From an uncultured Acidobacteriota bacterium (GTDB lineage: Bacteria; Acidobacteriota; Thermoanaerobaculia; Multivoradales; UBA5704), in NCBI GenBank assembly GCA_963770895.1, contig CAVYRF010000001.1, forward strand, positions 928,001 to 992,000: 64,000 bases of DNA, given 5' to 3'. A model generated the notes under the pieces. The model was not told where the DNA came from, ran no database searches, and saw nothing but the letters and a program-made list of their open reading frames with translations. Positions 11,076 to 60,136 of the stretch are shown here, one piece after another. How positions within the stretch are numbered: position 1 is the first letter of the stretch; each line of letters starts with the position of its first letter. A program made the translations under genes and the position numbers.

Positions 11076-11269
11076 GACACCTCCTTCTGCCGGGAGCGCC
11101 AGCGCGGATGGCGGGGACGCCGCCTGTCATCGATCTCTCTCTCAGACGGACGCGTTCGGCGCTTTCGCACGGCGGGCGGCCGGCCGCGCTGGCCCGCATA
11201 GGCGGCCCCGGAAAGCTGTGCTATCAATCCCTCCCGCATGGTCCTGTTCGACGTGTTGGGGCTCGCCAG

Positions 11270-14862: not shown

Positions 14863-14866
<4 letters not shown>
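12908..14866 (+). CDS. NRPS initiation module A-T
   Basis: A-domain cores 'TSGSTGVPK', 'YGPSE', 'YRTGDL' and 'SGKVDR'; PCP 'GGHSLL'; acidic C-terminal docking helix. Pocket read by eye: DARHLALMTK. Confidence 0.93.
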
Positions 14867-28180
<13,314 letters not shown>

Positions 28181-28184
<4 letters not shown>

Positions 28185-31100
28185 CCGGCGGCGCGGCAGG
28201 CGGCGGCGAGGCGATCGCGGTCGTCGGCATGAGCGGGCGCTTCCCGGGTGCCGCGAGCGTCGCCGAGTTGTGGCGCAACCTGCGCGCCGGGGTTTCCGGC
28301 GTCCGTCCCTTGACCGACCAGGAGCTGGCGGCGGCTGGGGTCGGCGCGGCGGAGCGCGACGATCCGCGCTACGTCCGCATGGCCGGGGTGTTGAGCGGCG
28401 CCGATCTGTTCGACGCCGGGCTCTTCGGCCTGACGCCGCGCGAGGCGGAGGTGATGGACCCGCAGCTGCGGGTGTTCCTCGAATGCGCCTGGGAGGCGCT
28501 GGAGGACGCCGGGCACGACCCCGAGCGCTTCCCCGGCTGGATCGGCGTCTATGCCGGTGCGGCGCTCGGCAAGTACCTGTGGCTCAACGTCGGGCGCCAC
28601 CCGGAAGCGCTGGCCGCGGTCGGCACCTTCCAGGCGATGATCACCAACGACAAGGACTTCCTCGCCACCCAGGTCAGCTATCGCCTGAACCTGCGCGGCC
28701 CGAGCCTCGGCGTGCAGAGCGCCTGCTCGACGTCGCTCGTGGCGGTGCACCTCGCCTGCCAGGCGCTGCTCTGCTTCGAGTGCGACATGGCGCTCGCCGG
28801 CGGCGTGTCGATCAGCCTGCCCGAGCAGGGCTATCTCTACCAGGACGACGGCCTGGCATCGCCCGATGGCGTCTGCCGGCCTTTCGATGCGCGGGCGGCG
28901 GGGACCATCCGCAGCAACGGCGCCGGGGTGGTGGCGCTGCGGCGGCTGGGCGACGCGCTGGCCGATGGCGACCGCGTGCTGGCCCTGGTGCGCGGCTCGG
29001 CGATCAACAACGACGGCGCGGCGAAGGTCGGCTTCACCGCCCCTTCGGTCGGCGGCCAGGCGGAGGTGATCGCCGTGGCGCAGGCGGTGGCGGGGGTGAG
29101 CGCGGAGAGCATCGGCTACGTCGAGGCGCACGGCACCGGCACGCCGCTCGGCGATCCGATCGAGGTGGCGGCGCTGACGCAGGCGTTCGGCGCGGCGGCG
29201 GCGCGCCGCGCCAGGTGCGCCCTGGGATCGATCAAGAGCAACCTCGGTCATCTCGACGCGGCGGCCGGGGTGGCCGGGTTCATCAAGACGGTCCTGGCGC
29301 TGCACCATGGAGAGCTGCCGCCGAGCCTCCACTTCGCGACCCCCAACCCGCAGATCGATTTCGCGGCCAGCCCGTTCTACGTCAACGCCGAGCTGCGCCC
29401 CTGGCCGCCGGGGGAGCCGGGGGAGACGCCGCGCCGCGCCGGCGTCAGCGCCTTCGGCATCGGCGGCACCAACGCCCACGTGGTGTTGGAAGAGGCGCCG
29501 CCCGCGGCGGCGGTTCCGGCCCCGGCGGCGGCGGAGGCAGCGCCTGAGATCCTGTTGCTCTCGGCGCAGAGCGAGACGGCGCTGCGCACCGCGGCGGCGC
29601 GGTTGGCGGCGCACGACAGTGAAGACCTGCCGGCGATCGCCTGCACGCTGCAGCTCGGACGCCGCGCCCTCGCCTGGCGCTGGTCGGCGGTGGTGCGAAG
29701 CACCGAAGAGGCGCGGCGGCGGTTGCATCAGCTGGCGCGCGGCGAGGCGGCGGCGGTGGCGGTGGCGCGCGAGCTGCCGGCGGTGGCGCTGGTGTTTCCG
29801 GGACCGGCGGCGGTGTTGGCGGGAGCGGGAGCGGGGGCGGGCGCAGGAGCGGACGCGGACGCTGGGAGAGCGGGGATGGCCGGGCTGGCGGCGGAGCTGT
29901 ACCGCACGCGGGCGGTGTTTCGCGCCGTGGTCGAGGAGGGCTGCGCGCTGCTCGCGCCAGAGCTGGGCGACGCGGTGCGGCGCGAGATCGCCGCCGGTCC
30001 GGCATCCGGCGACGTCCGGGTTACCGGTCCTGCGTCCGCCGTCGCGGCCGAAGCCGCCGCCCCGGCACTGTTCCTGTCGCAGCTGGCGCTGGCGCGGCTG
30101 TGGCTGAGCTGGGGCGTCGAGCCGGCGGCGCTCTACGGCTACGACGGTGGCGAGGAGGTGGCGGCGTGCGTGGCCGAGGTGCTGCCGCTCGCGGCGGCGC
30201 TCGAGCTCGCGGTGCTGCGCGGCCGGCTCGCGGCCGGCGGCGAGCGAGCGGCGATCCTGGCGGCGGTGCGCGGGCTGGTCGCCGTGGCGCGCCCGCAGGC
30301 GCCGCGCATCCGCATGGTGTCGAGCGTCACCGGCGACTGGGCGGGCTGGGAGGACCTGGCGGACCTGGCGTACTGGGTGGAGCTGCTGGCGGCGCCCGCC
30401 GACACCGCCGCCGGCCTGGCGCTGCTGCGCGACGAGCCGGCGCGGGTGCTGGTCGAAATCGGCCCGCGCGGCGGAGCCGTGGCGCAGCTTCTGGCGACGG
30501 CGGGCGAGCTCTGGCGAGCCGGCGTGGCGCTGCGCTGGGAGGCGGTGCACGAGCGGCGGCGTCCGCGCCGCGCGGCGCTGCCGACCTACCCCTTCGAACG
30601 CCAGCGCTACTACCTCGAACCCCAGGTGCCCGCCGGCGGGGCGGCGATGCCGCCGGCTTTGGGCAGTGGGACGGAACAGGTGGGGAGCGGCGGCGGCCGC
30701 CGGCCGCTCGCAGAGTGGTTCCACCTCGCGTCGTGGAAGCGGTCTCTGCCGCCTCCGCCCGGCGAGGAGCCGGCGGCGACGGAGCGCCGGTGTCTCGTGC
30801 TGCTGGACGACCGCGGCGTCGGCGCGGCGCTCGCCGCCGCCCTGCGGCGCGACGGCTGGCAGGTGACGGAGGCGGCGGCGGGCGCGGCCTGGCAGCAGGG
30901 GAGCGATGGGCGCTACGTGCTGCGGCCGGGGGACGAGGAAGACTTCCGGCGCCTGTGGCGCGCGCTCGCCGGCGACGTCGGTATCGGCGGCGGCGGTCTG
31001 CCGCGGCGGGTGGTCCACCTGTGGAACCTCGGCGGCGACAGCCCCGAACCGGGGCTCGACGCGGCGCTCGACCGCTCCTTCTACAGTCTGCTGCACCTGG

Positions 31101-32701
31101 CCGGGCGCTTCGCGGCGCACCCGGGGGCGGCGGTCGAGCTGACGGTGGTCTCCGACCGCCTGCACGCGGTGGACGGCGGCGACCGGCCGCACCCTGAACG
31201 GGCGGCGCTCCTGGGCACCTGCCGCGTGCTGCCGCAGGAGCTGGAGCACGTGAGCTGCCGCAGCCTCGATCTCGACGTGGCGGGTGGCGTCGAGCAGGCG
31301 GCGGCGCTCTGCCTGGCGGAGCTCGCCGCGCCGGCGGCCGAACCGGTCGTGGCGTGGCGCGGGCCGTATCGCTGGCTGCCGAGCTGGGAAGCGGTGCCGC
31401 TCGCCGACGCGGCGCCCGGCGCCGGCCTGCGGCCGGGGGGCGTCTACGTGGTGACCGGCGGCCTGGGCGGCGTCGGCCTGGAAGTGGCGGAGCTGCTCGC
31501 CGCCGGCGGCGCCCGGCTGGTGCTCGTCGGCCGCACGCCGTTGCCGCCGCGCGAGACCTGGGACGCCTGGCTCCCAGCCCATCCCGCCGGCGACGCGACG
31601 AGCGCCCGCATCCGCCGCCTGCAGGCGATCGAGGCGCGGGGCACCGCGCTCCTCCTCGCCGCCGGCGACGTCACCGACCGCGGGCAGATGGCGGCGGTGC
31701 GCGACGCGGCGCGGCAGCGCTTCGGCGCCGTGCACGGTGTTTTCCATGCCGCCGGGATCGCCGGCGGCGGGCTTCTGGCGACACGCACGCGCGAGCAGGC
31801 GGCGGCGGTCCTGGCGCCCAAGGTCGCCGGCACGCGGGTGGTGGCCGAAGTGTTCGGCGCCGTTGCCGGGGAGGCCGGGGAGGCCGGAGCCCTCGACCTC
31901 CTGGTCCTCTTCTCGTCGCTCAACGCGCTCACCGGCGGCATCGGGCAGGCCGACTACGCCGCGGCCAACGCCTTCCAGGACGCGTTTGCGGCGGCAGCCG
32001 CTGCGGCTCCGGCGACCCCGCCGATCACCGGCCGCACGCGCGTCGTCTCCATCAATTGGGACGCCTGGCAGGGCGCCGGCATGGCGTCGGCGGCCGACCT
32101 GCCCGCGGAGCTGCAAGCCTGGCGCGCCGCGCAGCTCGCCGAGGCGATCGAGCCGGCGGAAGGGCGCGCGGCGCTGGCGCGCATCCTGGCGGCGGACCTG
32201 GTACGGGTGGCGGTCGCGACCGACGACCTGGACGAGCGCCTGCGCGCCGCCGCAAGCCTGCGCCTGAGCGCTGCCCTGGCGCTCGCCGCCGCCGCCGCGC
32301 CGCCGCACCGCAACCCGCACCCGCGGCCGGCGGTGGCACCGGCCTACGTGCCGCCGGAGACGCCGGACGAAGAGCTCCTCGCCGGCCTCTGGCAGGAGCT
32401 TCTGGGCATCGCGCCGATCGGCCGCGACGACGGCTTCTTCGAGCTGGGCGGCCACTCGCTGCTCGCCGGCCAGCTCGCCGCCCGCATCCGCCAGCAGGTC
32501 GGCATCGACCTCCCCTTGCAGGCGGTCTTCGCCCATCCCACGCCGGCGCGGCTCGCCGTGGCGATGCGCGATGGCAGCGATGGTGGCGACCGTGGCGACG
32601 GTGGCGAAGACCACCAAGGCGGGGCGGTCGGCGCCGCGCCGGTGCTGGCGCCGCGGCCCCGTATCGGACGCCGCGTGCCGTTCCCCGGGGCGTTCGAATG
32701 A
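28181..32701 (+). CDS. Type I PKS module KS-AT(inactive)-KR-ACP
   Basis: KS triad intact ([21 protein letters not shown]). AT reads GYDGGE instead of GHSxG and lacks the HAFH subdomain. KR has GGLGGVG and [12 protein letters not shown] has GGHSLL. Confidence 0.95.
28211..29502 (+). repeat. KS copy 1, near-identical to KS copy 2 (51285-52636)
   Basis: Both start 'gcgatcgcggtcgtcggcatgagcgggcgcttcccggg' and share long identical stretches (e.g. [28 protein letters not shown]). Confidence 0.9.
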
Positions 32702-35700
32702 CGGCTTCCGAAGTTGCGGCACCGCCGGCAGCCGGCGCCGCCACCGCGGCGGCGGGCGAAGAGGCGTTCGTCTTCCCGCTCTCCCTGGCGCAGGAGCGGC
32801 TGTGGTTCGTCGACCAGATGAGCCCGGGCCTGGCGGCGTACAACATCCCGCTGGCGGTGCGGCTGTGCGGCCGCCTCGACCGCGCGGCGCTCGCGGCGGC
32901 GCTCGCCGGCGTGGTGCGGCGGCACGAAACGCTGCGCACGCGGTTCGGCGTCGACGACGGCCAGCCGGTGCAGGTGATCGCGCCGGAGACCGCCGCGCCG
33001 CCCGCCGCCGCCGCCGGCGCCGCCGTCCTGCCCGAGGTCGATCTGCGCGCTCTCGGTGCGGCCAAGGCGGCGGCGGAGGCCGCGCGGCTGGCGGCGGCGG
33101 CGGCGGCGGCGCCGTTCGACCTGCCTCGCGGGCCGGTATGGCGCGCGCGGCTGCTGCGCACGGCGGCGGCGGAGCACGTGCTGCTCCTGGTGCTGCACCA
33201 CATCGCCGGCGACCGCTGGTCGCTCGGCGTGCTGCTGGCCGAGGTCGCGGCGCTGTACGTCGGGCGGCCGCTGCCGCCTCTGCCGCTGCAGTACGCCGAC
33301 TTCGCGGTGTGGCAGCGCGAGGCGCTTGCCGGCGGCGAGCTCGGGCGCCAGCTGGCGCACTGGCGCGAGCGGCTGGCCGGCGCCGCGCCGCTCGTGCTGC
33401 CGGCCGATTGGCGGCGGCCGGCGCGGGCGCGGCATCGCGGCGCGGTGGTGCGGGGCGACCTGCCGCCGGCGCTCGCCGACGCCCTGCGGCAGCGCGGCCG
33501 CGAGGCGGGGGCGACGCTCTTCATGACGCTCCTCGCCGGGTTCGTGGTGGTGCTGGCGCAACACGCCGGCGAGGACGACCTGGTCGTCGGCACCGCGGTC
33601 GCCGGCCGCGCGCGGCGTGAGCTCGAAGGACTGATCGGCTTTTTCGTCAACACCCTGCCGCTGCGTGTCGATCTGGCGGGCGAGCCCACCTTTGGTGAGC
33701 TGGTGGCGCGGGTGCGCGCCGTGGCGCTGGACGCCTTTGCCCATCAGGACGTGCCGTTCGACCGCCTGGTCGAGGAGATGCGGCCGTCCGGCGGCCTGGG
33801 GGGCGGCGGCGCCGCGCCGCCGCTGGTGCAGGTGACCTTCCTGCTGCAGAACACGCCGCTGCCCGAGCTGCGGCTGCCGGGCGTCGAGCTGGCCGAAATG
33901 TCTCTCCCCTCGCGCTTCGCCAAGTTCGACCTCGCGGTGAGCGCGGTCGAGGAGGCGGGCGGCGGCGTGAGCGTGCACTGGGAGCTCGACGCCGACCTTT
34001 TCCTGCCGGCCGGCGTCGAGCGCCTGGCACGCCAGTTTCGCACCCTCCTGGCCGCCGCGGTGGCAGCGCCCCACCTCGCGGTGTGGGACCTGCCGCTCGC
34101 CGACCAGGCCGAGACCGCGGCGCTCCTTGCCGCCTGGAACCGCGATCTGCGTCTGCCGGTGGGCGTGGCGCCACCGCTGAGCGCACCGAGCGCACCGAGC
34201 GCAGTGTCGGAGACGGAGGAGCTGGCGTCCTGGCTGTGCACGGCGGCGGCGACTGCCGCCGGGGTGGCGGCGGCGCGGGTGGCGCCGGACATGCCGTGGA
34301 GCCGGCTGGCCCTCGACTCGCTGGCGGCGGTCGAGCTGCGGCACGAGATCGCCGCGCACACCGGCGTCGAGGTGGAGCTGGCCGATCTCCTGGACGCGGC
34401 GAGCGCCGACCACCTCGCCGCGGCGATCCTGGCGCGCCAGCAGGAGGAGCGCTCCGGGGCGGCGCCGTCGACCGCGGCGATGGCGGGGGTGGCGGCGGTG
34501 GCAACCGCAGCGTGGCCGGAGCCTTCGCCGCCGGGTTCCGAACTGCCGCTGGCGGCCGGGCAGCGGGCGCTCTGGCTCATCCACCAGCTGGCGCCGGCTT
34601 CCGGCGCCTACCACATCGCCGCCGCTTTCCGCGTCCTGGCGCCGCTCGACGACGCGGCGCTGCGGCGCGCCGTGGCGACGATCGCCCGGCGCCACGCGGC
34701 ACTGCGCTCGACCTTCCACGCGCGCGGCGGCGAGCCCTACCAGACGATCCAGCCGGAGATGCCGCCGGAGTGGCGGGAGATCGACGCCACCGGGCTCGCC
34801 CTTGCAGGGCTCGGCGAACGGCTGGCCGACGAGGCGTGGCGACCGTTCGACCTGGCCCGCGGGCCGCTGGTGCGCCTGGTCTGGCTGCGCGGCGCGGCGG
34901 GCGGCGACCGGCTGCTCTTCGTCGTGCATCACCTGGTCGCCGACTTCACTTCCCTGGCGGTGGCGGCGGCCGAGCTCGGCGCGCTCTACGGCCTCGCCGC
35001 GCCCCCGCCGCCGCCGCCGCCGCCGCCGGCAGTGAGCTACGAGCAGTTCGTGCGCTGGCAGGCGGCGGCGCTCGCCGGCGAGCGCCTGGAGCGCCTGTGG
35101 GCCTTCTGGAGCGCCGCGCTCGCCGGCGCCCCCGCGGCGCTCGATCTGCCGGCCGACCGGCCGCGCCCGCCGGCGCCGAGCTACCGCGGCGGGGTCGAGC
35201 GGGCGCGCTTGCCAGGCGGCGCCGGGAGCCTCGCGTTGTTAGCGGGGGCAGGGGCGGGAGCGGGGGCGGGGGAGCGCGCGGCGACGCCTTTCGTGGCGCT
35301 CGCCGCGGCGTGGATGGGGCTCCTCCATCGCACCACCGGCGACGAAGACCTGCTCGTCGGCACGGCCACCGCCGGCCGTCCCGGGCCGCGCGCCGCGGCG
35401 GTCGTCGGCTACTTCGCCAACCCGGTCGTGCTGCGTGCCCGGCCGCGCGGCGACCAGCCGTTCTCCGCGCTGCTCGCCGAGCTGCGGGAGACGACGCTCG
35501 CCGCCTTCGCCCACCAGGATCTGCCGTTCCCGCTGCTCGCCGAGCGGCTGCATCCGGAACGCGACGCGGCGCGCTCACCGGTCTTCCAGGTGAGCCTGGC
35601 GCTCTACCGCGAGCCCGGCGGCGCGGCGGCCCCCGCGGCGCTCGCCGCCATCTCCGGTATCGCCGGCATCGCTGCCGGCGCTCCGGACGTGCCGCTCGAC

Positions 35701-38700
35701 CTCGGCGGCCTGCGGCTCGCGTCGCTGGCGCTCGACGAGCGCTGGGCGCCGTTCGACCTCAGTCTGCGCGCCGCCGAGGTGGCGGGCGACCTGGTGCTCG
35801 CGCTGCAGTTCAGCCGCGACCTTTTCGACGCCGTGACCGCGCGGCGCCTGCTCGATCACCTGGTGCGCCTGCTGGCGGCGGCGGCGGCGCGGCCGGCGAG
35901 CCGCCTCGCCGAGCTGCCGCTTCTCGCCGCCGCCGAGCGCTGGCAGCTTCTGGGCGAGTGGGCGGAAACCGCGACGGCGACAGCGCGCGCGGTCGGCCTC
36001 CCCCACCTGGTCGCCGAGCAGGCGGCGCGCACTCCCGACGCGGTGGCGGTCGTCGCGACGGCTGGCCGCCACCTGTCCTACGGCGAGCTCGACCGTCGCG
36101 CCGCCGGCCTGGCGCGGCGCCTGGCGGCGCACGGCGTCGGCTTGGACTCCCGCGTCGGGCTCCACGGCGAGCGCTCGCCGGAGCTGGTGATCGGCGCGCT
36201 CGGCATCCTGCGGACGGGTGCCGCCTTCGTGCCGCTCGATCCCGAGCTGCCGCCGGCGCGGCTGGCGTTCCAGTTGGGTGACGCGGTGGGCGCCGGCGGT
36301 GTGGTCCTGGCTGCGGACGCGCCGGCCGGTCCGCCCTGGGATGCGATGCGCGTGCTGCCGCTCGCGCTGCGCGCGGACGGCTCGGCGGGCGCTCCGGGTG
36401 CCGGGGAGGTGCCGCCGGATGGGCTGGCCTACGTGCTCTACACCTCGGGCTCGACCGGGACGCCCAAGGGGGTGATGAACAGCCACCGCGGCATCGTCAA
36501 CCGCCTGCTCTGGGGCAAGACGGTATTCCCGCTCACGGCGGCCGACCGTGTGGCGCAGAAGACGCCGGCCACCTTCGACGTCGCGGTGGTCGAGCTGTTT
36601 TCGCCGCTCGTCCAGGGAGCCTGCCTGGTCCAGGCGCGTGCCGGCGGCCATCGCGAGCCGGCGTACCTGGCGCGCTGGCTGGTCGAGCAGGCGATCACGG
36701 TGGCGCACTTCGTGCCGTCCTTGGTTCTGGAGCTGCTCGCCGAGCGCGCGCTGCCGCGGGCGGGCGCGCTCCGCCGGCTGTTGGTGGGCGGCGAGGCGAT
36801 GGCGCGCCAGCTCGCCCTGGGCGTCGAGCAGCGCTTGGCGGCGCGGCTCTACAACCTCTACGGTCCGGCCGAGGCGGCGGTCGACACCGTCACCTGGCCG
36901 TGCCGTGACCAGGCCGCGGCGCGGCCGGTGCCGCTCGGCTGGCCGGTCGCCAATACCCGCGCCTACGTGGTCGAGCACGGCGGCGAGCCGGCGCCGCTCG
37001 GCATCGCCGGCGAGCTGTGGCTCGGCGGCCCGCAGCTCGGGCGCGGCTACCTGGGGCGGCCGGCGCTGACGGCGGAGCGCTTCGTGCCCGACCCCTGGGC
37101 GGCGGCCGCCGGCACGGCGGGGGCGCGCGCCTACCGCACCGGCGACCGCGTGCGCCGGCGCTGGGACGGCGCGCTCGAATTCCTCGGCCGGCTCGACTTC
37201 CAGGTCAAGGTGCGCGGCGTCCGTATCGAGCTGGGCGAGATCGAGGCGGCGCTCGTGGCGCAGCCGGAGATCGCCGCGGCGGCGGTGCGGCTCGCGGGCG
37301 AAGCGGCGACGGCACGGCTGGTGGCGTTCGTCGTCGCGGCGCGCGGCGCGAGCGTGCCGGCAGCCGCCGAGCTGCGCCGGCGCCTGCGCCAGACGCTGCC
37401 CGACGCGATGCTGCCGGCGCGCTGCGTGACGCTCGCGGCGCTGCCGCTGACGCCGCACGGCAAGCGCGATCACGCCGCCCTGGCGCTCCTCGCGGCGGCG
37501 CCGGCGCGGCCGGCAGGCGATGCCGGCGATGTCTTCGAAGGTGGGGAGGGCGGCGCCGCCTGGGAGGCGCCGCGCGGCGCGGTCGAGGAGCTGCTGGCGG
37601 CGCTCTACGCCGAGCTCCTGCCCGACCTGGCGCCGGGGGAGATCGGCCGCGACGCCAACTTCTTCGCGCTGGGCGGCCATTCGCTCCTCGCCGCGCGGCT
37701 CGCGGCGCGCGCCGGCCAGGCCCTGGGGTGCGAGCTGCCGCTGGCGGCGGTGTGGAGCGCCGCGACGCTTGCCGACCTCGCCAGGGCGGCGGCGGCGCTG
37801 CGCGCCGCGGGCGTGGCGGAGCTCGCGCCGCTCGTGCCGGTGCCGCGCGAGGGCGAGCTGCCGCTGTCGTTCGCCCAGGAACGGCTGTGGTTCATCGACC
37901 GCCTGGAGCCGGCAACGGCGCACTACAACCTGGCGGCGGCGCTCGCCGTCCACGGCGCGCTCGACCGCCGCGCGCTCGCCCGGGCGGTGGCGGCGCTCGC
38001 CGTGCGCCACGAGGTGCTGCGCGCGCGCTTTCCGGCGCCGCTCGGCCGGCCGGTGCAGGCGATCGCCGCCACGCCTGCCGCCGCGCCGCTGCCGCTCGTC
38101 GACCTGGCGGCGCTGCCGCCTGCCGCGCGCGCCGCGGAGCTCGATCGCCGCATGCGCGACGAGGCGCGGCGCCCGTTCGACCTCGCGCGCGGGCCGCTGT
38201 TGCGCTGCCTGCTGCTCCACGCCGCGCCCGGCGAGCACCGGCTGCTGGTGACCCTCCACCACATCGTCGCCGACGGTTGGTCGGTCGGCATCCTGGAGCG
38301 CGAGCTGGGGGATCTCTACGCCGCCGGCGCCGGCAGTCGGACGCCGCCGCTGCCGGTGCTGCCCTTGCAGTACGCCGATTTCGCCGTCTGGCAGCGGCGC
38401 AGCCTGACCGACGCGGTTGCGGCCGGCGAGGCGGCGTGGTGGCGCGAGCGCCTGGCGGCGGCGCCGGCCGACCTGGCGCTGCCTTTCGATCGGCCGCGGC
38501 CGGCGGTGCCGCGCCGATACGGCGCCTCGGTGCCGGTCGCGCTGCCGCCGGCGGTGGCGGCAACCGTTGGCGAATGGGCGCGGCGGCAGCGCCTGACGCC
38601 GTTCATGGCGCTCCTCGCGGCGCTCCAGGCGCTGCTCGCGCGCTACAGCGGGCAGCCGGCGATCGCCGTCGGCGCGCCGGTCGCCGGCCGGCAGCGGGCG

Positions 38701-41700
38701 GAGCTCGAGCCCCTGGTCGGCTGTTTCGTCAACACCCTGGTGCTGGTCGGCGAGGTGGATGACGACCCGCCGTTTGCCGATCTGCTGACCCGCACGCGGC
38801 AGGCGGTGCTGGCAGCGCTGGCACATCAGGAGCTGCCCTTCGAGCGCCTGGTCGAGCTCCTGGCGCCGGAGCGGCGCGTGGGACGTCAGCCGTTCTTTCA
38901 GGTTCTCCTCGCGGTCGAGGACGCACGCCCCGCGGGTCTCACGCTCGCCGGGCTGCGCGTCGCGCGGCTGCCGCCGGCGCACGTGACGGCCAAGGCCGAC
39001 CTGGCGCTGACCGTTGCCGGCGACACGGCGGGCTTCCGCGGCGCGCTCGACTACGACCGCGAGCTCTTCGACCCGCCGACCGCGGCGCGCCTGGCGGCGC
39101 ACTGGACGACGCTGATCGCGGCCGCGGCGGCGCACCCCGGGCGCCGCCTGAGCGAGCTGCCGCTGCTGTCGCCGGGCGAGCGTGCGCAGGTGGTGGGCGA
39201 GTGGAACGACACCGCGCCGGCAGCGGCCGACGCCGCCCATGCCGCCAACGCCGCCAACCCTGCCGACAGCGCGGCCTGGCTGCCGGTGCCGGCGCAGGTC
39301 GCGGCGCGGGCGCGGCGCGCCCCCGACGCCGCGGCGCTCGTCCAGGCGGGGCGGGTGGTGAGCTACGGCGCCCTCTACGCCGCGGCGTCGTCGCTCGCGG
39401 CGCGGCTGCGGGCGTGCGGCGTCGGCCCCGAGACCACGGTCGCGCTCTGCGCCGAGCGCTCCGCCGAGCTCGCGGTCGGCCTCCTCGCCGTGCTCCTGGC
39501 CGGCGGCGCCTTCGTGCCGCTCGACCCGGCGCAGCCCGCGGCGCGCCTGGGGCGCCTGCTGAGCGACGCCCGCCCGCGCGCCGTCCTCACCCGGCGCGGC
39601 CTGCGTGATCGGCTGCCACCGGCCTGCGACGCGCCGGTGATCGAGCTGGACGCGGTGCTGGCGCCGCAAGACGTCGCGCGGCCGGACGCGCCGCCGGCGC
39701 CGCTGGCGCCAGCAGACGCCGAGCCCGCCGCCACACCTGCCGCCGCCCCTCCGGCCGCGCCAGGGCAGCTCGCCTACGTGATCTATACCTCGGGCTCGAC
39801 CGGCCAGCCGAAGGGGGTCGAGGTCTCGCACGCGGCGTTCGCCAACCTGGTCGCCTGGCACCGGCGCGCCTGGGCGCTCGCCGCGGGGACGCAGGCGAGC
39901 TGGCTTTCGGGGGTCGGCTTCGATGCCTCGGTCTGGGAGCTGTGGCCGGCCCTGGCGGCGGGCGGCACGCTCCACCTGCCGGACGACGCCACGCGGCTCG
40001 CGCCCGAGGCGCTGCGCGACTGGCTGGTGGCGCGGCAGGTCGGCATCGCCTTCGCACCGACGGCCCTGGCGGCGGCCCTGGTCGAGTCGCCCTGGCCGCG
40101 CGCGACGGCTCTCGCGGTGCTGTTGACCGGCGGCGACCGGCTGGCGGCGCGGCCGCCGGCCGGCCTGCCCTTCGCGCTGATCAACAACTACGGTCCGACC
40201 GAGGGCACCGTGGTGGCAACCGCGGGGCGCGTGCCGCCGCGCACCGTGGCGGCCCCGGCGCCACCGACGATCGGCCGCCCCATCCGCGGCGTCGCGGTGC
40301 GGCTGCTCGACCCGGCGCTGCGGCCGGTGCCGATCGGCGTGGCGGGCGAACTCTGCATCGCCGGGCTGGGGCTGGCGCGCGGCTACCGCGGGCGGCCGGA
40401 GCTGACCGCCGGGCGCTTCGTGCCCGACCCGCTGGGCAGCGCCGGTGCACGCCTCTATCGCAGCGGCGACCTCGGACGCTGGCTGGCGGCGGGCGAGATC
40501 GAGTTTCTCGGCCGGCGCGACCAACAGATCAAGCTGCGCGGCCACCGTATCGAGCCGGCGGAGATCGAGGCGGTGCTGACCGCCCACCCGGCGGTACGCC
40601 AGGCGGTGGTTCTGGCGGTGGGCGAGGGCGGCGCGCGCCGCCTGGTGGCGAGCGTCGAAGGCGTCCAGGGCGCGGTGAGCGCCGCCGATCTGCGCGCCCA
40701 CCTGCGGGCGGCGCTGCCCGAGGCGATGGTGCCGGCGCGCCTGGTGTTCGTCGAGCGGCTGCCGCTGACGGTGAACGGCAAGCTCGACCGGCGAGCCGTG
40801 GCGGTGGAGCACGCCGCGGCACTGGCGGTGACCGGTGGCGGCGGTGGCGGCGCGGATCAGGCCGCGGCGGCCGGCGCGGACGGCACGGGTGGCGCGCCGC
40901 GCGGCCCGGTCGAGGAGCTGCTGGCCGGGGTGTGGGCCGATCTGCTCGGCATCGAGGCCGCCGCCATCGGCCGCCAGGCCGACTTCTTCGCCTTGGGTGG
41001 GCACTCGCTGCTCGCCACCCGGCTGGCGGCTCTGGTCGAGCGGGCGATCGGGGTCGAGATGCCGCTTGCGGCGGTGTTCGCGGCGCCCACCCTGGCGGGC
41101 TTGGCGGCGCGGATCGCCGCGGCGCACGATGCCACGCTGCCGCCGCTGCCGCCGCTGCCGGCGCTGCCGCCGCTCATCGCCGCCGGGCGCGGCGGTCCGA
41201 GGGAGGAGGGCGGCGAGCTGGCCGCCGCCTTCGCCCAGGAGCGCATGTGGTTGCTCGACCGGTTGGCGCCGGCGAGCGGCGCCTACCACATTGCGACCGC
41301 GCTCGCCGCCGCGGGCGCACTGGACGTCGCGGCGCTGCGCAGCGCCCTGGACGCCTTCGCCGGCCGCCACGAAACCCTGCGCACCACCTTCGCCGAGCGC
41401 GACGGCCGCCTGTTGCAGGTGATCGCGCCGCCATCGGCCCAGGCGCTGCCGGTGATCGACCTGACGGCGGCGACGGCCGGCGCCGCCGCGGAGCTGCACC
41501 GCCTGGTGCGGGCGGAGGCGGCGCGGCCGTTCGATCTGGCGCGCGGGCCGCTCCTGCGGGTGACCCTGGTGCGGCGCGGGACGCGGGACCAGGTGCTCCT
41601 GGTGACGCTCCACCACATCATCGCCGACGCCGCCTCGGTGGCGGTGATGCTGCGCGAGCTCGGCGTCCTCTACGACGCAGCGCAGGCGCGCGGCGCGGAT

Positions 41701-44700
41701 CATGGCGGCGTGGTGCCGGTGCTCGCGCCGCTGCCCATCCAGTACGCCGACTACGCCCTCTGGCAGCGCGGCTGGCTGCGCGGCGAGCTGCTGGCCGGCG
41801 AGGTGGCGTGGTGGCGCGAACGGCTTGCCGGCCTGCCGCCCGAGCTGCCGCTCCCCTGGGACCGCCCGCGGCCGGCCGTGCCGCGACGGGCGGCGCACCT
41901 GGCGCGGCGGCCGCTGGCCGCGGCGGCGGCGCTCGCGGCGCTGGCGCGGGCGCACGGGGCGACGCTCTTCATGACGCTCCTCGCGGCGTTCCAGGTGCTG
42001 CTGGCGCGCCTGGGCGGCGGCGACGACGTGCCGGTCGGGACACCGGTCGCCAACCGCACGCGGCCCGAGGTCGAGGGGCTGGTCGGCCTCTTCGTCAACA
42101 CGCTCGTGCTGCGCGGCGATCTCGCCGCGGCGCCGGCCTTCGATGCCTTCCTGGCGCGGACCCGCGACGCGGCCCTGGCCGCCTACGCCCACCAGGAGGT
42201 GCCGATCGAGAAGCTGGTCGAGGCGCTGGCGCCGGTGCGCGACGCCGGCCGCCAGCCGCTGTTCCAGGTCCTGTTCACCCTGGAGGAGGCGCCGCTCGCC
42301 GGGCTGCGGCTGGGCGGCGTCGCGCTGGCGCCGCTCGCCGCCGCCCCCGCACCGGCGAAGTTCGACCTGACGCTTGCGGTGACGCGCCAGGGCGGCGAGC
42401 TGACGGCGACGCTGGAGCTCGACGGCGACCGCTTCGACGCGGCGACCGGCGAGCTCCTGGCCGACTGCTTCGCGACCCTGGTTGCAGGCATCGCGGGCAT
42501 CGCCGGCATCGCCGCGGCGCCGGCCCCCGGTGTCGACGCGCTGCCGCTTCTCGACACGGCGGCGCGGCGCGCGGTGCTGGCGGCGGCGGAGGGGGAGCGG
42601 GTGAGGCGCCCGGCGCGCGGCCTGCACGAGCTGTTCGAAGCGCAGGCCGCGCGCACGCCGGACGCGGTGGCGCTGGTCGACGCGGACCGCCACCTCACCT
42701 ACCAGGCGCTCGACGAATGGGGGAACTTGCTGGCCCACCGCCTGGCGCGGGTGGGCGTCGGCGCCGACGCCCGCGTCGGCATCTGCGCCGAACGCTCCGC
42801 GGCGATGAGCGCCGCGCTCCTCGCGGTGCTCAAGGCGGGCGGGGCGTTCGTGCCGCTCGATCCGGATCATCCGCCGGAACGGCTGGCGGGCGAGATCGCC
42901 GAAAGCGAGGCGCGGGTGGTGCTGGTCACGGCAGCCGTCGCGGCGCGCCTGCCGCGGCTCCCTGCCGGCACGGTGGTGCTGCGCATTGCGGCGCCGCCGC
43001 CGTCGCCGGCAAGCGAGCGGGCGGCGCTGCCGCGGCGGGCGGCGCTGCCCGCGGCGCTGGCCTACGTGATCTTCACCTCCGGCTCGACCGGCAGGCCCAA
43101 GGGCGTCATGGTGTCGCACGGGGCGATCCTCAATCACGAGCTGTTCGTCGCCGAGCGCTACCCGCTGAATGCCGGCGACACCGCGCTGCAGATCACGCCG
43201 TTCTCGTTCGACGCCGCGCTCTGGGAGCTCTTCACCCCGCTCGCCGCCGGCGCGCGCCTGGTGGTGGCGCGGCCGGGCGGCCATCGCGATCCGTCCTACA
43301 TCACGCGGCTCGCCGCGGCCGAGGGGGCGACGGTGCTGCAACTGGTGCCGTCGATGGCGGCGCCGCTGCTCGACGATCCGGGCATCGCCGCCTGCCGCGC
43401 CCTGCGCCTGGTGGCGTGCGGCGGCGAGCCGCTGCCCGGCGAGCTGGCCGACCGGCTGATGGCGCGCCTGGGCGTCGCGCTGGTCAACTTCTACGGTCCG
43501 ACCGAATGCGCCATCGATGCCACGAGCTGGCCCTGCCGGCCGGGCGAGGGGCGGCGGCGCGTGGTGCCGATCGGCTTGGCGCTGCCCAACGTCCGGGCGC
43601 ACGTCCTGGACGACGGGCTGGCGCCCTTGCCGGTGGGGGCGCCCGGCGAGCTCTGCGTCGGCGGCGCCTGCCTGGCGCGCGGCTACGTCGGGCGGCCGGA
43701 GCTGACCGCCGAGCGCTTCGTGCCCGACCCGTGGAGTGCCCGGCCCGGCGAGCGGCTTTACCGCACCGGCGACCGGGTACGGCGGCTGCGCGGCGGCGAG
43801 ATCGAATACCTCGGGCGGCGCGACGCGCAGGTCAAGGTGCGCGGCGCCCGCGTCGAGTTGGGCGAGATCGAGGCGGTGCTGCTCGCCATGCCGGGGGTCA
43901 GCGAGGCGGCGGTGGTGATGGCCGGCGACCAGGACGCGCGGCGGCTCGTCGCCTGTGTGGTGCCCGCCGCCGGCGCGGCGGGCGATGATGGCGGTGGTGG
44001 CGGCGGCGGCAGGCCGGGGGAGCTCGCGGCGGCGCTGCGCCGCCACTGCCGGGAGCAGCTCCCCGAGTACATGCTGCCGCAGGCGTTCGTAGTGTTGGCG
44101 CGGCTGCCGCGTCTGCCGAGCGGCAAGCTCGACCGGCGGGCGGCGGCCGCCGCGGCGGCGGGTGCTGTCGCCGACGAGAGCGCGGCGTCGGCGGACGGCG
44201 CACCGCACACGCCCTACGAGGAGATCGTCGCCGGGCTCTGGGCGGAGGTGCTGGGGCGGCAGCGGGTCGGCGTTGAGGCCGACTTCTTCGCCGACCTCGG
44301 CGGTCATTCCCTGCTTGCCGCGCAGGTGGTGTCGCGAATGCGCGAGCGTCTGGGTGTCGAGGTGCCGCTGCGTGCGCTGTTCGACGCGCCGACCGTACGC
44401 GGTCTGGCGGCGGTCGCCCTCCGCACCTCGGAGATGGCGGCGACGGCGGCGATTGCCGTTCCGCTGCTCGCGCGGCGGGCCGGAGAGGAGCCGGCGGCGC
44501 TCTCTTTCGCCCAGGAGCGGATCTGGTTCCTCACCCAGCTGACGCCCGGGCTCACCGCTTACAACATGCCGCTGGCGCTCACCCTCCACGGTGATCTGGC
44601 GGTGCCGGCGCTGGCGCGGGCGCTCGCCGCGCTCACCGCGCGGCATGAGGTGCTGCGCACGCGCTACGCGGCGCTGGGCGGCCCGCCGGTGCAGGTGGTG

Positions 44701-47700
44701 GCGCCGGCGGCACCTGTGCCGCTGCCGGTCGTCGATCTCGGCGGGTTGGCCGGCGTGGCCGGCGGGGCGGCGGCCGAGGCGGCGCGGCTGGCGGCCGCCG
44801 AGGCGCGCCGCGCCTTCGATCTCGGCCGCGACCTGCCGCTGCGCGCCTGCCTGCTGCGGCTGGGCGGCGGCGAGCACCGCCTCCTCCTGACGCTGCACCA
44901 CATCGCCGCCGACGGCTGGTCGCTGGCGCTGGTCGCCGGCGAGCTGGGGCCGCTCTACGCCGGCGCGGCGCTCGCCACGCTGCCGCTGCAGTACGCCGAC
45001 TACGCGGCCTGGCAGCGGCGGGCGATGAGCGGCGCGGCGCTCGCGCGGCAGCTCGACTACTGGCGGCGGCAGCTGGCGGAGCTGCCGCCGCTGGAGCTGC
45101 CGGCGGATCGGCCGCGCCCGGCGGTGCCGCGGCAGCGCGGCGCGGTCCTCCCCTGGCGATTGCCGGCGGAGCTCGGCGACCGCCTGCGGCAGCTGGCGCG
45201 GGAGGCCGGGGCGACGCTCTTCATGACGCTCCTGGCCGGCTTCCAGGAGCTGCTCGCGCGCCACGCCGGGCAGGACGACTTCGCGGTCGGCGCCGCCGTC
45301 GCCAATCGCGGGCGGCGCGAGATCGAGGGTCTGGTCGGCCTTTTCGTCAATACCCTGGCGCTGCGCACGGGGGCCGGCGGCGACGGCGCCGCCGGCTTCG
45401 CGGCGCGGGTCGCCGCGACGCGCGAGACGACGCTCGCCGCCTACGCCCATCAGGACGTGCCGTTCGAGCGCCTGGTCGAGGAGCTGCAGCCGGCGCGCGA
45501 CACCCGCCGCGCGCCGCTCGTCCAGGTCATGCTGCTGTGGCAGAACACGCCGCTGCCGGCCCTCGCCCTGCCGGGCCTCGCGGCGTCGGCCGCCGCGATC
45601 GACAACGGCAGCGCCAAGCTCGATCTGCTGCTGTCGCTCGAGGACGAGGCGGGCGCCGTCGCCGGCGCCTGGGAGGTCGATACCGACCTCTTCGACGTGG
45701 CGACGATCGCGCGCTTCGCCGAGCGCTTCCGCTGCCTGCTGGCGGCGGCCGCGGCGGAGCCACGGCGGCCGCTTGCCGAGCTGCGCTGGTTCGACGAGGC
45801 GGAGCGGCGCGAGATGCTGGCCGCGGGGCAGGCCGCTCCGGCAGCCTGGCAAGCAGAGCGGCCGGTGCGGGCGCTGGTTGCCGAGCAGGCAGCGCGTGCT
45901 CCCGAGGCGGTGGCGGTGACCGCCGCCGGTGAGCGAGCGCTTTCCTATGGCGCGCTCGACGCCGCGGCCGCCCGCCTGGCCGGCGTGCTGCGGCGGCGCG
46001 GGGTCGGCCCCGAGGTGCGCGTCGGCGTCTGTCTCGACCGCGGCCCCGAGCTCCTGGTGGCGCTCCTCGCGGTGCTCGAGGCCGGCGGCGCCTATGTGCC
46101 GCTCGATCCGGCCCATCCGCCGGCGCGCCTCGCGGCGGCGATCGCCGATGCGGCGCCGCGGCTCGTGCTGGCCGCGCGCCGCCACCGCGCGCTCCTGGCC
46201 GGCGCAGCGGTCTACGACATCGAGGAGGCGCTGGCGGCGCCCGGCGGTGCCCCGCTGAGCACCGCGGCCGCCGGCGCGGCGCCGGCTGATCGCTGCCTGG
46301 ACGGGGCGGCGTACGTGATCTTCACCTCCGGTTCGACCGGCCGTCCCAAGGGGGTGGTGGTGACGCATCGCGGGCTGAGCAACCTGCTGCTCGCGATCCG
46401 CGACCTGGGGGCGGTGGTGCCGGGCGAGGCGCTGCTGGCGGTGACCACGCTCGGCTTCGACATCGCCGGGCTCGAGCTCTTCGTGCCGCTCGTCACCGGC
46501 GGCACGGTGGCGCTCGCGGCGCGCGAGGAGAGCGCCGAGCCGGCGCGGCTGCGGGCGCGGCTCGCCGATCCGCGCATCGCGGCAATGCAGGCTACCCCGG
46601 CCACCTGGCACATGCTGCTCGACGACGGCTGGCGCCCGCGGCGTGGGTTCCATGTCCTCTGCGGCGGCGAGGCGCTGCCGGCGGCGCTGGCGGCGGCGCT
46701 TCTCGCGCCCGGCGCGGCGCTGTGGAACCTCTACGGGCCGACCGAGACCACCATCTGGTCGACCGCCCTGCGTGTCGCGCCGCACGTGCCGCGAGGAGCG
46801 ATCGTGCCGCTCGGCGCGCCGCTCGCCCACACCACCCTGCGAGTGCTCGACGGCGGCGGCGAGCCGGTGCCGCTCGGTGTCGCGGGCGAGCTCCACATCG
46901 GCGGCGCCGGTGTCGCCCGCGGCTACCTCGATCGTCCCGACCTGACGGCCGAGCGCTTCGTCCCCGACGCCTGGGGCGCCGCCGGCGCGCGTCTTTACCG
47001 CACCGGCGACCGCGTCTGCCGGCGCTCCTCCGGCGCGCTCGAGTTCCTCGGCAGGCTCGACCACCAGGTGAAGCTGCGCGGCTTCCGTATCGAGCCGGCA
47101 GAGATCGCGGCCGTGCTGCGCGACTCACCGGGTATCGGGGAGGCGGTCGTCGTGCTGCGCGAGGACGTTCCCGGCGGTCCGCGGCTGGTGGCCTACGTCG
47201 TGCCGGCGGCGCCGGCGGGCGCGGGGAAGGTGCCGGCCGCGCCGGCGGATACCGCCGCGGCCGAGCTGGCGGCGGCGCTGCGCCGGCGCTGCCGCGAGCG
47301 GCTGCCGGCCCAGATGGTGCCGGCGGCGTTCGTGGTGCTGCCGCGGCTGCCGCTCACCCCCAACGGCAAGCTCGACCGCCGGGCACTGCCGGCGCCGGCG
47401 GCGCCAGCGTCGCCGGCAGCGGGGGAGCGCGGCAGCGCGGCTGCCGTGGCGGCGACGCCGCTCGAAGAGATCGTCGCCGGGCTGTGGGCGGACGTCCTGG
47501 GGCGCGAGCGCGTCGGCATCGAGGACGATTTCTTCACCGACCTGGGCGGTCACTCGCTCCTCGCGACGCAGGTGGTGGCGCGGCTGCGCGAGCGGCTGGG
47601 GTACGAGCTGCCGCTGCGCTCGCTCTTCGAGGCGCCGACGGTGCGCGCCTGGGCGGGGCGGGTGGCGGCCGCGGCGGAGGTGGGGGAGGACGCCGCGCTC

Positions 47701-50700
47701 GCAGCGGCGCCGCCGCGCCTCGAGCGGCGGCCGAAGGCGGCGCCTGGAGAGCCGCCGGCGCCGCTGCCGCTGTCGTTCGCCCAGGAGCGCCTCTGGTTCC
47801 TGGAGCAGTTGGCGCCGGGGCTCCCGGTCTACAACCTGCCGCTCGCGGTGCGCCTCTCCGGCCCGCTCGACCGCGCCGCGCTCGCCCGTGCGCTGGCCGC
47901 GGTGGTGGCGCGCCACGAGGCGCTGCGCACCCGCTTCCGCTTCGCCGGCGGGCGGCCGGTGCAGGAGGTGGCGCCGGCGCTGGCGATCGACCTGCCGGGC
48001 GCGCCGCTGCTGGCGCTGCCGCTGGTCGATCTCACCGGCGTTGCGGCGCCCGCGGGTGCGACGGCAAGCGCGACCGCGCCAGGCACGGCGGCGGCCCTCT
48101 CGATGCCGGCAAGCACGGTGGCGGCGCGGCTCGCGGCGGCCGAGGCGGCACGGCCTTTCGATCTCGAGATGGCGCCGCTGCTGCGCGCGACGCTCGTGGC
48201 GCTGGCCGCGGGCGAGCACCTGCTGCTCCTGACCCTGCACCACATTGCCGGCGACGGCTGGTCGTTCGGTGTGCTGCTGCGCGAGCTGGGTGCGCTCTAC
48301 GCCGGCAGGGTGCTGCCGGAGCTGCCGGTGCAGTATGCCGACTATGCCCTGTGGCAGCGGCGATGGCTGCGCGGCGCGGTGCTCGACGGCCAGCTCGCCT
48401 TCTGGCGGCGCCAGCTCGCGGAGCTGCCGGTGCTCGACATGCCGGCCGACCGGCCGCGGCCGCCGGCACAGGCGCACCGCGGCGGGCAGGTGCCGATCGC
48501 GGCGCCGGCGGCTCTGCTCCCGGCGCTCCGGCAACTCGGCCGCGCCGCCGGGGCGACGCTCTTCATGACCCTCCTGGCCGGCTTCCAGGCCCTGCTCGCG
48601 CGCTGGAGCGGGCAGCGCGACCTGGCGGTGGGGACGGCGGTCGCCAACCGCCGGCGCCGCGAGCTCGAAGAGCTGATCGGATTCTTCGCCAACACCCTGG
48701 TGCTGCGCGCCGACCTCGCGGCGGCGGCGGACTTCGCGGCGCTCCTCGCGCAGGTGCGCGCGACGACGCTCGACGCCTATGCCCACCAGGACGTGCCGTT
48801 CGAAAAGCTGGTCGAGCAGCTGCGCCCGACGCGCGACACCGGCCGCAACCCGCTGGTGCAGGTGATGCTCGTGCTGCAGAACGCGCCGCTGGCGGTGCCG
48901 CCGCTGCCGGGGTTGACCGCGGCCGCCGCGGCGGTCGCCGGCCACGGCGCGATGTTCGATCTGTCGCTGCTGCTGACCGAGGACGTGGACGGCGGGCTCC
49001 GCGGCGTGCTCGAGTACGACGCCGATCTTTGGGACGCGGCGACGGCGGAGCGCCTGGCGGACCACTTCCTGCGCCTGCTGGCGGCGGCCGCGGCGGCCAC
49101 GGAGGGGGCGACGGCGCCGCTCGCCGATCTGCCGCTGCTGTCGCCCGGCGAGCTGCGGCAGGTGGTCGAGGAGTGGAACCGGACGGCGCGCGAGCCGCGG
49201 CCGGCGGCGACTCTGCACGCGCGGGTCGCGGCGCAGGCGCGGCGCACGCCGGCGGCGGTGGCGGTGGTCCACGGCGGGCGGCGGCTCACCTACGGCGAGC
49301 TCGCCGACGCGGCGGGCGTCCTCGCCGGGCGGTTGCGGCGTGCCGGCGCCGGCGCCGGGCGGATCGTCGCGGTGAGCCTCGAGCGCTCCGCGGAGATGGT
49401 GGTGGCGCTGCTCGGCGTGCTCGCCGCGGGCGCAGCCTACGTGCCGCTCGATCCGGCCTATCCCGCCGAGCGGCGGGCCTGGGTCTTGGGCGATGCCGGC
49501 GCCGCCCTGGGGGTGACCTCGACGCGGCTTCAGGCGCAGGTCGCGGGCGACAGTGCGGTGGTGCGCTGGCTGTGTGTCGACCAGCCGGAGGAGGAGGCGG
49601 TGGCCGGCCCGGGTGGCGCGGCGGCGGTGGCATCGGCGGCGTTGGCGGCGGCGATGGCGTCGGCGGCCAGCGGGTGGCGGGAGACCGATCCCAGCGAGCT
49701 GGCGTACGTGATCTACACGTCGGGGTCGACGGGGCGTCCGAAGGGTGTGGCGATCGCGCACGAGAGCGCCTCGGCGCTGCTCGACTGGAGCGCGGCGACC
49801 TTTCCGGACGCGGCGTTGGCGGGGGTTTTGGCGAGCACCTCGATCAGCTTCGACCTGTCGATCTTCGAGCTGTTCGGCACGCTGGCGCGCGGCGGCACGG
49901 TGGTGCTCGCCGAGACGCTGTTCGATGAGGCAGCATGGGACTGCGGCTGGCCGGTGACGTTGGTGAACACGGTGCCGTCGCTGCTCGATTCGCTCCTGGC
50001 CGGCCGGCCGCTGCCCGCGAGCGTCCAGGTGGTGAACCTGGCGGGCGAAGCGCTGCCGGCGCGGCTGGTGGAGCGGCTGCGCGCGGCGCTTCCCGACGCG
50101 GTGGTGATGAATCTCTACGGTCCGTCCGAGGCGACGACGTATTCGACCTGGGCGCGGGTAGGTGGGGAGCCGGTGCCGCCGATCGGTCGGCCGGTCGCGG
50201 GGACTTGGGGCTACGTGCTCGACGGGGCGATGGCGCCGCAACCGGTGGGCGTACCGGGGGAGCTGTACCTGGGGGGCGCGGGCCTGGCGCGCGGCTACCT
50301 GGGCCGGCCGGAGCTGACCGCCGAACGGTTCCTGCCGGACCCCTTCGGTGATCAGAGGGGTAAGACGGGCTGGGGGGGCCAGGGGAGCCGGGGGGGCGAG
50401 CGTCTCTATCGCACCGGCGACCGGGTGCGCTGGCTTCGGGGGGGCGTGCTCGAATACCTGGGGCGGCTCGACGACCAGGTGAAGCTGCGCGGCTTCCGCA
50501 TCGAGCCTGGTGAGGTCGAGGCCGCGCTCGCCGGGCACCCGGCGGTGCGCGAGGCGGCGGTGGTGGTGGTGCGTCAGGACGCGGCGGGAGAGCGGCGGCT
50601 GGTGGCGTACGTCGCCCTCGCAGAGGCCGGTGAGCGGGCCGCCGCCGCGGGTGCCGCGGGCAATGGGAATGCCGCCGGCGCGAGCGCCGGGGACGCGGCC

Positions 50701-60033: not shown

Positions 60034-60136
60034 GGGCACCGGACTCCTTCGCGTAGGGCCACGCCAGCGATTTTGGCACATCGATGCCGAGCAAGTCGCA
60101 GGAGGAGCCCGCATGAGCGACCAACGCCGAGGGTAT

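Follow-up and report, generated by a model that had tools for sequence, protein, structure and literature searches.

Lines of nonribosomal peptide synthetases (NRPSs) can begin with a FAAL (fatty acyl-AMP ligase), an ACP (acyl carrier protein) domain, and a C (condensation) domain in that order, as described for vioprolide and corramycin (PMC10099666), for potashchelin (PMC7100376), and in a review (PMC11837247); here and below, published systems are described from the available parts of the cited papers. We analyzed a 64,000-nucleotide stretch (the window; positions 928,001 to 992,000 of contig CAVYRF010000001.1, assembly GCA_963770895.1) of the 8.16 Mb genome of an uncultured Acidobacteriota bacterium, labeled G000, with other G numbers standing for compared genomes. 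The window holds an NRPS-polyketide synthase (PKS) cluster whose second large synthetase, NRPS-2, starts with a C-ACP-C junction (domains C1, ACP, and C2). The junction unit evidently derives from a FAAL-ACP-C lipo-initiation module, of which it is a non-canonical member. It shares with the published modules the carrier type, the starter type of C domain, and C-A-T modules downstream (A, adenylation; T, thiolation), and the intact form is present in two relatives, G011 and G021. Unlike them, it has no FAAL in cis and is internal, and the candidate FAAL is encoded on another contig, from which it would serve ~20 clusters.

An internal lipid start is described for icosalide. Its synthetase IcoA is a double chain-initiating NRPS in which the starter C domain embedded in module 3 acylates an aminoacyl carrier in vitro, the C domain upstream of it has been proposed to link the 3-hydroxyacyl group with the first chain, and 3-hydroxyacyl thioesters are thought to be drawn from fatty-acid synthesis (PMC6553374). 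Compared by description, NRPS-2 likewise has a starter C domain embedded downstream of an elongating one. However, the available text on IcoA gives no carrier between the C domains, whereas a dedicated FAAL-type ACP stands between them here, the donor would be a PKS-extended peptide, and the first C domain is a separate gene in relatives. In zeamine biosynthesis, the stand-alone C domain Zmn19 couples an NRPS-PKS beta-hydroxy thioester with what a second pathway, one of lipid type, produces (PMC5811116). A separate C domain behind a ketoreductase (KR)-bearing PKS module is also found in G011, G021, and G041, and is fused in G000. The acceptor of Zmn19, as far as it is described there, is a free polyamine from a line resembling a polyunsaturated fatty acid synthase, whereas here it would be a FAAL-primed NRPS-PKS line with its own thioesterase (TE); no genes of a free-amine or polyamine pathway were found in the window flanks. 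Finally, A-less pairs of a C domain and a peptidyl carrier protein (PCP) domain are loaded in trans in WS9326A (Cal19, PMC7539972) and syringomycin (SyrE, PMC8949500). These resemble the junction in that a C-carrier pair inside a line lacks an adenylating domain and needs supply in trans, but their PCPs, in the parts available, take amino acids from in-cluster A or A-T partners, whereas here an acyl carrier is followed by a starter C domain.

We do not assign the junction to the icosalide or the Zmn19 type, and its resemblance to either is a predicted one. No description of a FAAL-type C-ACP-C junction was found in the literature searched, which comprised few subscription papers and main texts without supplements. 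Related genomes hold three states of one line, a C domain and a separate FAAL-ACP-C, a C domain and a separate ACP-C, and the fused C-ACP-C, and so illustrate how a lipid start can come to lie inside a synthetase. If the two chains are indeed coupled as proposed below, the junction would add to icosalide a second way of re-initiating and joining chains, and the C-ACP-C unit could be a portable part for lipid-linked peptides. If C1 only releases the first line, the junction would be an evolutionary curiosity and the shared FAAL the main result.

Anatomy and integrity of the junction

A first-pass annotation of the window had reported an A-less C-ACP-C arrangement in NRPS-2, and this is borne out by Pfam domain matches and by contigs of a related strain that cross the junction. 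The first 1100 residues of NRPS-2 contain two Condensation stretches and one PP-binding match (model positions 2-67 of 67), and residues 1-1100 have no AMP-binding match in Pfam. The motifs lie where they had been placed, with HHIAGDRWS of C1 at 33196-33222, the Ser codon of the carrier (TCG) at 34318-34320, and HHLVADFTS of C2 at 34927-34953; C2 also contains the peptide [11 protein letters not shown] at 34558. The C-A linker peptide of C1, [17 protein letters not shown], needed correction: it spans 34090-34140, and the positions first given for it, 34135-34140, hold its last two residues only.

The carrier had been called unlike every GGHSLL carrier elsewhere in the cluster, and profile scores agree. 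Against a profile built from 23 FAAL-type ACPs of G000 (itself excluded) it reaches 67 bits, versus 18 bits on a PCP profile, and the remaining 12 of the 13 window carriers show the reverse (82-110 bits on the PCP profile, 11-38 on the ACP profile). The closest solved structures to it are PKS-type ACPs. Among the 307 carriers called in G000, the adjacency of C1 to a FAAL-type ACP is unique; the seven other C-carrier pairs without an A domain all have ordinary PCPs. C1 and the ACP are spaced by 35 residues, compared with 26-118 in those seven pairs and 35-42 in four pairs from other loci, two of which occupy the same place as this junction. The frames of the seven A-less C-PCP modules start at G000 positions C1:470885, 1190302, and 1518395 and C2:3542474 (two), 3935832, and 4060873, where C1 and C2 are part of the locators and not domains; several further C-PCP modules in this genome have partial A domains.

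A tree of 112 C domains (those of the window and the orthologs, every post-ACP domain, and others drawn at random from G000) places the second C domain, which had been described as atypical, with the orthologs' post-ACP C domains (support 0.983) inside a starter group (0.987). C1 clusters with three separate C domains of the orthologs (0.989), within the ordinary elongating group of the cluster. The phylogenetic comparison that the annotation had proposed sets C1 and C2 each with their orthologs and C2 apart from the elongating C domains, and by profile the carrier is not an ordinary PCP. The junction holds two features of a FAAL-ACP-C module, a FAAL-type carrier with its Ser site and a starter-type C domain behind it, and no similarity to a FAAL was detected within 3 kb upstream of the ACP.

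The contigs that cross the junction come from runs X2 and X4 of a related strain (~93% alike; two studies, one year, possibly one campaign). Record 11 of X2 (2272 bases) spans it with pieces at 33288-34476 and 34491-35514, and record 18 of X4 with 33647-34476. Each shows 18 gap letters in its first piece, a multiple of three (at 34173-34197 in X2), and neither carries an insertion the size of an A domain or a FAAL. Judged by gap length, the frame is kept in the related strain, and a stop codon in its linker is possible (40 of the 493 differences are listed). When 34030-34500 was searched with the threshold at 88%, neither of these contigs was matched, an indication that linker and ACP are less than 88% alike in that strain. 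Because the related-strain contigs cross without a large insertion, we take it as confirmed that the C-ACP-C junction is real and not an assembly collapse. Of the coverage that had been sought across 34100-34250, the same-strain part is missing: 34062-34221 is not covered by any same-strain piece, and within 34030-34500 the coverage by the exact-match run X1 is limited to 34306-34500. This unbridged interval, at least one frame break in the cluster assembly, and the seven other A-less C-PCP pairs of G000 are what could be said for an A domain lost from the assembly at a 9-nt repeat, or for an ordinary A-less module fed an amino acid in trans as in WS9326A. Both versions are largely refuted by the bridging contigs, by a carrier that is not a PCP, by the starter type of C2, and by what the orthologs hold at this place (below), and we give them hardly any credence.

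The 9-nt tandem repeat (34179-34203) lies within the fusion linker. The annotation had singled it out as the crossing point, but it is ordinary, as 12797-57575 contains 17 perfect 9-nt tandem loci and the window as a whole yields 115 TRF rows. We rejected it as a splice scar on that count, and also because the region is 18 letters shorter in the related strain.

Orthologous clusters and FAAL loss across the genome

When 92 family genomes were searched with the end of C1 plus the ACP, G021, G041, and G011 ranked first. G011 and G021 represent one other genus and G041, a partial contig, a third. In G011 and G021, the order is a lone acyltransferase (AT), A-T, four NRPS modules, KS-AT-KR-ACP (KS, ketosynthase), a separate C domain, FAAL-ACP-C plus five modules, and KS-AT-KR-ACP-TE; the whole cluster has the same order in G000, with the same ABC (ATP-binding cassette) permease behind it. 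G041 has KS-KR-ACP, a separate C domain, and then a FAAL-less ACP-C. None of the three has the fused form for which the annotation had suggested a search of related genomes. The separate C domain carries the motif HHIVSDRWS in all three orthologs, and its gene stops directly after the C-A linker helix, whereas G000 continues for 21 codons into the ACP.

Identity to G011, G021, and G041 is 63, 64, and 63% for C1 and 59, 62, and 58% for C3. The ACP is 49 and 55% identical to those of G011 and G021, and the next PCP 53 and 60%. Synonymous divergence between the genomes, saturated by G+C bias, did not enter the comparison. Module by module, most A domains are orthologs, the Ala domains excepted. 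Because the orthologs carry a FAAL or nothing at the junction, and never an A domain, the missing domain is by this comparison a FAAL. Since FAAL loss is common in G000, we favor a deletion of stop codon and FAAL as the direction of change; a fused C-FAAL-ACP ancestor that was later split in the other genera stays a live alternative because the G000 linker retains the canonical Trp-Asn. The annotation had pictured a lipopeptide starter that lost its FAAL and was fused behind the upstream line. The loss and the fusion stand, but no foreign starter was spliced in, as the two lines are already neighbors in the orthologs.

A motif search of 300 genomes of the order gave matches at 22 places in 20 genomes, and a C1-type domain precedes a FAAL or ACP only in G000, G011, G021, and G041. 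Both lines occur together in all four of these genomes (for G041, on a partial contig). A class-wide search with the starter A-T, scoring three candidates per genome, matched 8 of 401 genomes and added no ortholog; G330 has a different cluster. A metagenome scan returned one unrelated locus. With residues 380-700 as query, 83 matches were obtained among 8000 scored candidate proteins (605-1925 residues), none with the C-ACP-C arrangement; the named best matches include several from Acidobacteriota and Thermoanaerobaculia. In a survey of FAAL-type ACP calls, 26 from 211 loci and 17 from the 83 proteins, none follows a C domain in one frame, and no fused C-FAAL was seen; the loci came from our own searches, overlap, are mostly short, and do not prove rarity.

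Loss of the FAAL is not confined to the junction. In G000, 20 other NRPS frames begin with a FAAL-less ACP-C, and four ACPs have a fused FAAL. One of the 20 starters (G000:C1:1518395-1526104) retains a clear C-terminal FAAL subdomain before its ACP, and in G000:C1:2172516-2187602 a FAAL-like N-terminal stub (the first helix, by eye) is joined to the ACP. The search for a free FAAL, which the annotation had recommended, was successful. Three free FAAL-like genes are present. Two of them we dismissed as loaders: the first belongs, together with its own ACP, to a type III PKS operon, and the second is an ACP-ligase-acyltransferase fusion. The third, at G000:C2:910083-911972 (L014:5084-6973), is an orphan FAAL that has a histidine kinase on one side, a TonB-like gene on the other, and no adjoining carrier. 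It nests among NRPS-fused FAALs, is syntenic in G003, and has orthologs of 76-79% identity in seven of nine congeners (frames of 607-720 residues in six, 1293 in one). Stand-alone FAALs are, according to the available text of the FAAL review, usually co-localized with their ACP (PMC11837247). We note the orphan FAAL as a candidate loader for the 20 FAAL-less ACP-C starters.

The distribution of FAALs among relatives points the same way. G003 has the orphan FAAL, and 0 of its 12 strong ACP-C matches adjoin a FAAL; the orphan has no match in G009 or G011, and there a FAAL adjoins 5 of 6 (G009) and 6 of 7 (G011) (strong matches have E <=2e-36 and start within 18 residues of the query start; cut-offs were set after looking). 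This pattern, although among kin, fits one shared loader that would make fused FAALs dispensable. FAAL loss is, on these genome comparisons, lineage-wide and accompanied by a candidate trans FAAL rather than a local accident, and the junction ACP is likely loaded in trans by this single shared enzyme encoded elsewhere. If so, genome mining in this apparently uncultured and NRPS-rich lineage of acidobacteria would take clusters with a FAAL-less ACP-C for broken ones, and they would stay silent in heterologous hosts unless the distant orphan FAAL were added.

A candidate second chain start and the role of C1

From the anatomy, the orthologs, the FAAL loss, and the orphan FAAL with its distribution, we infer that the junction is a second, trans-acylated initiation point, a step that we consider probable taken by itself. 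The fuller proposal, in which C1 also joins the lipid-primed chain to the upstream peptide-polyketide in an icosalide-like manner, is the one that we tentatively prefer, with considerable doubt. In this scheme, line 1 would comprise a starter, four residues, and one reduced two-carbon unit, and would end at C1 with no TE of its own. The AT within the PKS module lacks its Ser, so the two-carbon unit would come by way of the lone AT. The orphan FAAL would load a fatty acid onto the junction ACP in trans, and C2 would transfer the fatty acyl group to residue X of line 2. The A-domain codes of NRPS-2 read, by a code-to-residue assignment that we presume to hold, X-Leu-Gln-Gly-Ala, so line 2 would continue with Leu, Gln, Gly, Ala, and one further two-carbon unit before TE release. 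C1 would pass line 1 to a hydroxyl group within the lipid-primed chain. The simplest acceptor would be the 3-OH of a 3-hydroxyacyl chain carried by the ACP, which lies 35 residues behind C1; otherwise it would be the side chain of residue 1. The predicted product is one lipodepsipeptide: starter, four residues, two-carbon unit, acyl link, X-Leu-Gln-Gly-Ala, and two-carbon unit, released by a single TE. The two lines share one TE, one exporter, and a conserved gene order, which we count in favor of coupling. Of the three roles that the annotation had offered for the ACP, the second entry point fares best, and a pass-through station is less likely.

Several observations weigh against this proposal. 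The conserved gene order is also compatible with two co-produced compounds, and the compared genomes are kin and not independent cases. The ACP of G041 is only 38-50% alike to the others. Among 64 carriers of this kind, only the junction carrier, with its ALDSL motif, has Ala in place of the conserved Gly; the A domain behind C2 differs at three code positions from the orthologs' DVWHFSLVDK, and its GKRD at the catalytic lysine is the only case among 242 sequences. The changed code and the GKRD suggest that this stretch may be drifting. No fatty-acid hydroxylating or aminating gene is common to the clusters. Ser-type first modules make up about 11 of 24 in G000, and the conserved Ser of the orthologs is weakened as proof of a branch point by their being this common. 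In NRPS-1, a frame change occurs within 18000-18165, between the first A domain and the first carrier, at a G run. Lastly, in a homology model of the fungal PlmJ C1, in the text available, the Arg of HHxxxDR lies in the substrate channel (PMC10549243).

If the whole cluster in G000 were decaying, the junction would be a tolerated deletion without function. The frame change in NRPS-1, ALDSL, GKRD, the drifted code of the A domain behind C2, the lack in NRPS-1's first A domain of a methyltransferase-sized insert that the orthologs have, and the longer branches on which every G000 domain sits would fit such a history. NRPS-2, however, keeps an 18.5-kb frame without stops, C1 is no less conserved than its neighbors, the cluster is colinear in the related strain, and the break in NRPS-1 fits a sequencing error at the G run. 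On balance, we judge general decay to be very improbable.

In a reading particular to G000, the ACP stays unacylated, takes the upstream chain from the PKS carrier, and presents it to C2 for condensation with X, giving a lipid-free chain. The ALDSL motif could weaken FAAL recognition, the changed pocket of the A domain behind C2 could reflect a new donor, and the fusion brings the ACP within reach of C1; transfer via the carrier of a skipped module is also discussed, in the part available, for PlmJ (PMC10549243). The ACPs of G011 and G021 cannot have this role, as each carries a FAAL; no clear change in rate relative to their neighbors is seen for C2 and the ACP; and a candidate trans FAAL exists. 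Such a pass-through is to our minds improbable.

C1 retains the catalytic His and Asp. The annotation had flagged the Arg in place of the motif Gly as an oddity of C1, and this does not hold, as all three orthologs have it and it is common in complete modules. An HHxxxDR pattern scan of species genomes gave at least 120 stretches, of which 80 with flanks were examined. Among the matches listed, 84 HHxxxDR domains in 80 loci span Actinobacteria, Cyanobacteria, Proteobacteria, Acidobacteria, and others; in 66 of the 84, the same frame continues with an A domain, and one precedes an ACP, a case not independent of the orthologs. Codes downstream are what we take to be Ala or Gly type in 27 of 62 among the matches listed, a hint of a narrow acceptor site. 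Arg as the mark of a dead C1 was considered and is not supported, given that it is ortholog-wide and common in complete modules and that C1 is as conserved as its neighbors. In the available text of the megapolipeptin paper, a capping role is suggested for an HHxxxDR domain, as a proposal only (PMC11411415). As separate observations, two relatives (L208 and L211) have an HHxxxDR C domain followed by an FkbH-like sequence (by eye) behind a carrier, and four genomes (L212-L215) have endings A-T-C[HHxxxDR]-TE without a last carrier.

The two lines could also be independent, with ACP-C2 starting a trans-acylated lipopeptide, C1 merely releasing line 1 (onto a small free amine or alcohol as in Zmn19, by hydrolysis, or by ring closure), and the fusion a neutral by-product of FAAL deletion. 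The three orthologs all encode C1 on its own, following a PKS module with a KR, as in Zmn18-Zmn19; HHxxxDR domains elsewhere stand last or before a TE; and FAAL deletions are common, with a stub in at least one of the 20 starters and a FAAL-like start in a second (by eye). On the other side, the clusters share no gene that supplies a free amine or alcohol, the two lines co-occur in all C1-group genomes as noted above, and the fusion is retained in a strain ~7% diverged. We regard independence as distinctly unlikely. Returning to coupled lines, a broader version takes C1 and the trans-acylated ACP as a fatty-acid elongation module, with a hydroxy fatty acid in mid-chain linking two halves and one orphan FAAL priming ~20 clusters whose FAALs were lost once it arose; we consider this whole rather unlikely.

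The rest of the cluster

The features of the cluster are collected in Table 1. We interpret the lone AT as a partner for the first PKS module, whose AT is dead, and not as a loader of the junction ACP.

Table 1. Positions in the window of the junction and of the genes around it
Feature	Position	Strand	Remarks
Lone AT	11108..12727	+	GYSVG, HAFH; conserved in G011 and G021
Starter A-T of first line	12911..14866	+	Code DARHLALMTK
NRPS-1, four modules	14863..28184	+	Frame break near G run ~18007-18015
PKS module KS-AT-KR-ACP, degenerate AT (GYDGG)	28181..32701	+	Putative upstream-chain donor to C1; stop codon overlaps NRPS-2 start
NRPS-2	32698..51198	+	C1-ACP-C2-A-T-(C-A-T)x4; single uninterrupted open reading frame, 6166 residues
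C1 condensation domain	32773..34149	+	Ends in C-A linker helix; assigned by Pfam, tree, and motif
Fusion linker, 21 codons	34150..34212	+	Starts at the orthologs' stop-codon position; replaces stop codon and FAAL
FAAL-type ACP	34213..34434	+	Motif ALDSL
C2 condensation domain	34543..35934	+	Starter type, of the group following FAAL-type ACPs
First A-T of second line	35983..37803	+	Ser-derived A domain, code DVVHLGLVDK, GKRD at catalytic lysine
Terminal PKS module KS-AT-KR-ACP-TE	51195..57575	+	Only TE of the cluster
MacB/FtsX-type ABC permease	57610..60114	-	Same place in G011 and G021, 62-66%

Frame breaks like that in NRPS-1 are also frequent in the few-contig assembly of G021. The first A domain of NRPS-1 (16435-17965) is the one without the insert of ~300 residues found in G011 and G021. 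The third A domain of NRPS-1 (~22950-24480) and the last of NRPS-2 (~49200-50800) are near-identical Ala-type domains on branches of 0.03-0.04, and the orthologs have Ser at the first of these places; a recent copy-over of the Ala-type domain is likely. At the cluster edge, the ABC permease is the only flank gene common to the clusters. Two open reading frames upstream of the lone AT (8461-9996 and 10080-11075, both on the minus strand) have no Pfam match and no counterpart in the flanks of the orthologs. Elsewhere in G000, at C1:1029797-1060054, two modules have paired adenylation-type domains before the carrier, one of each pair being FAAL-like, with PF23024 matches at 1032836 and 1038659 and ~30-33% identity to FAALs.

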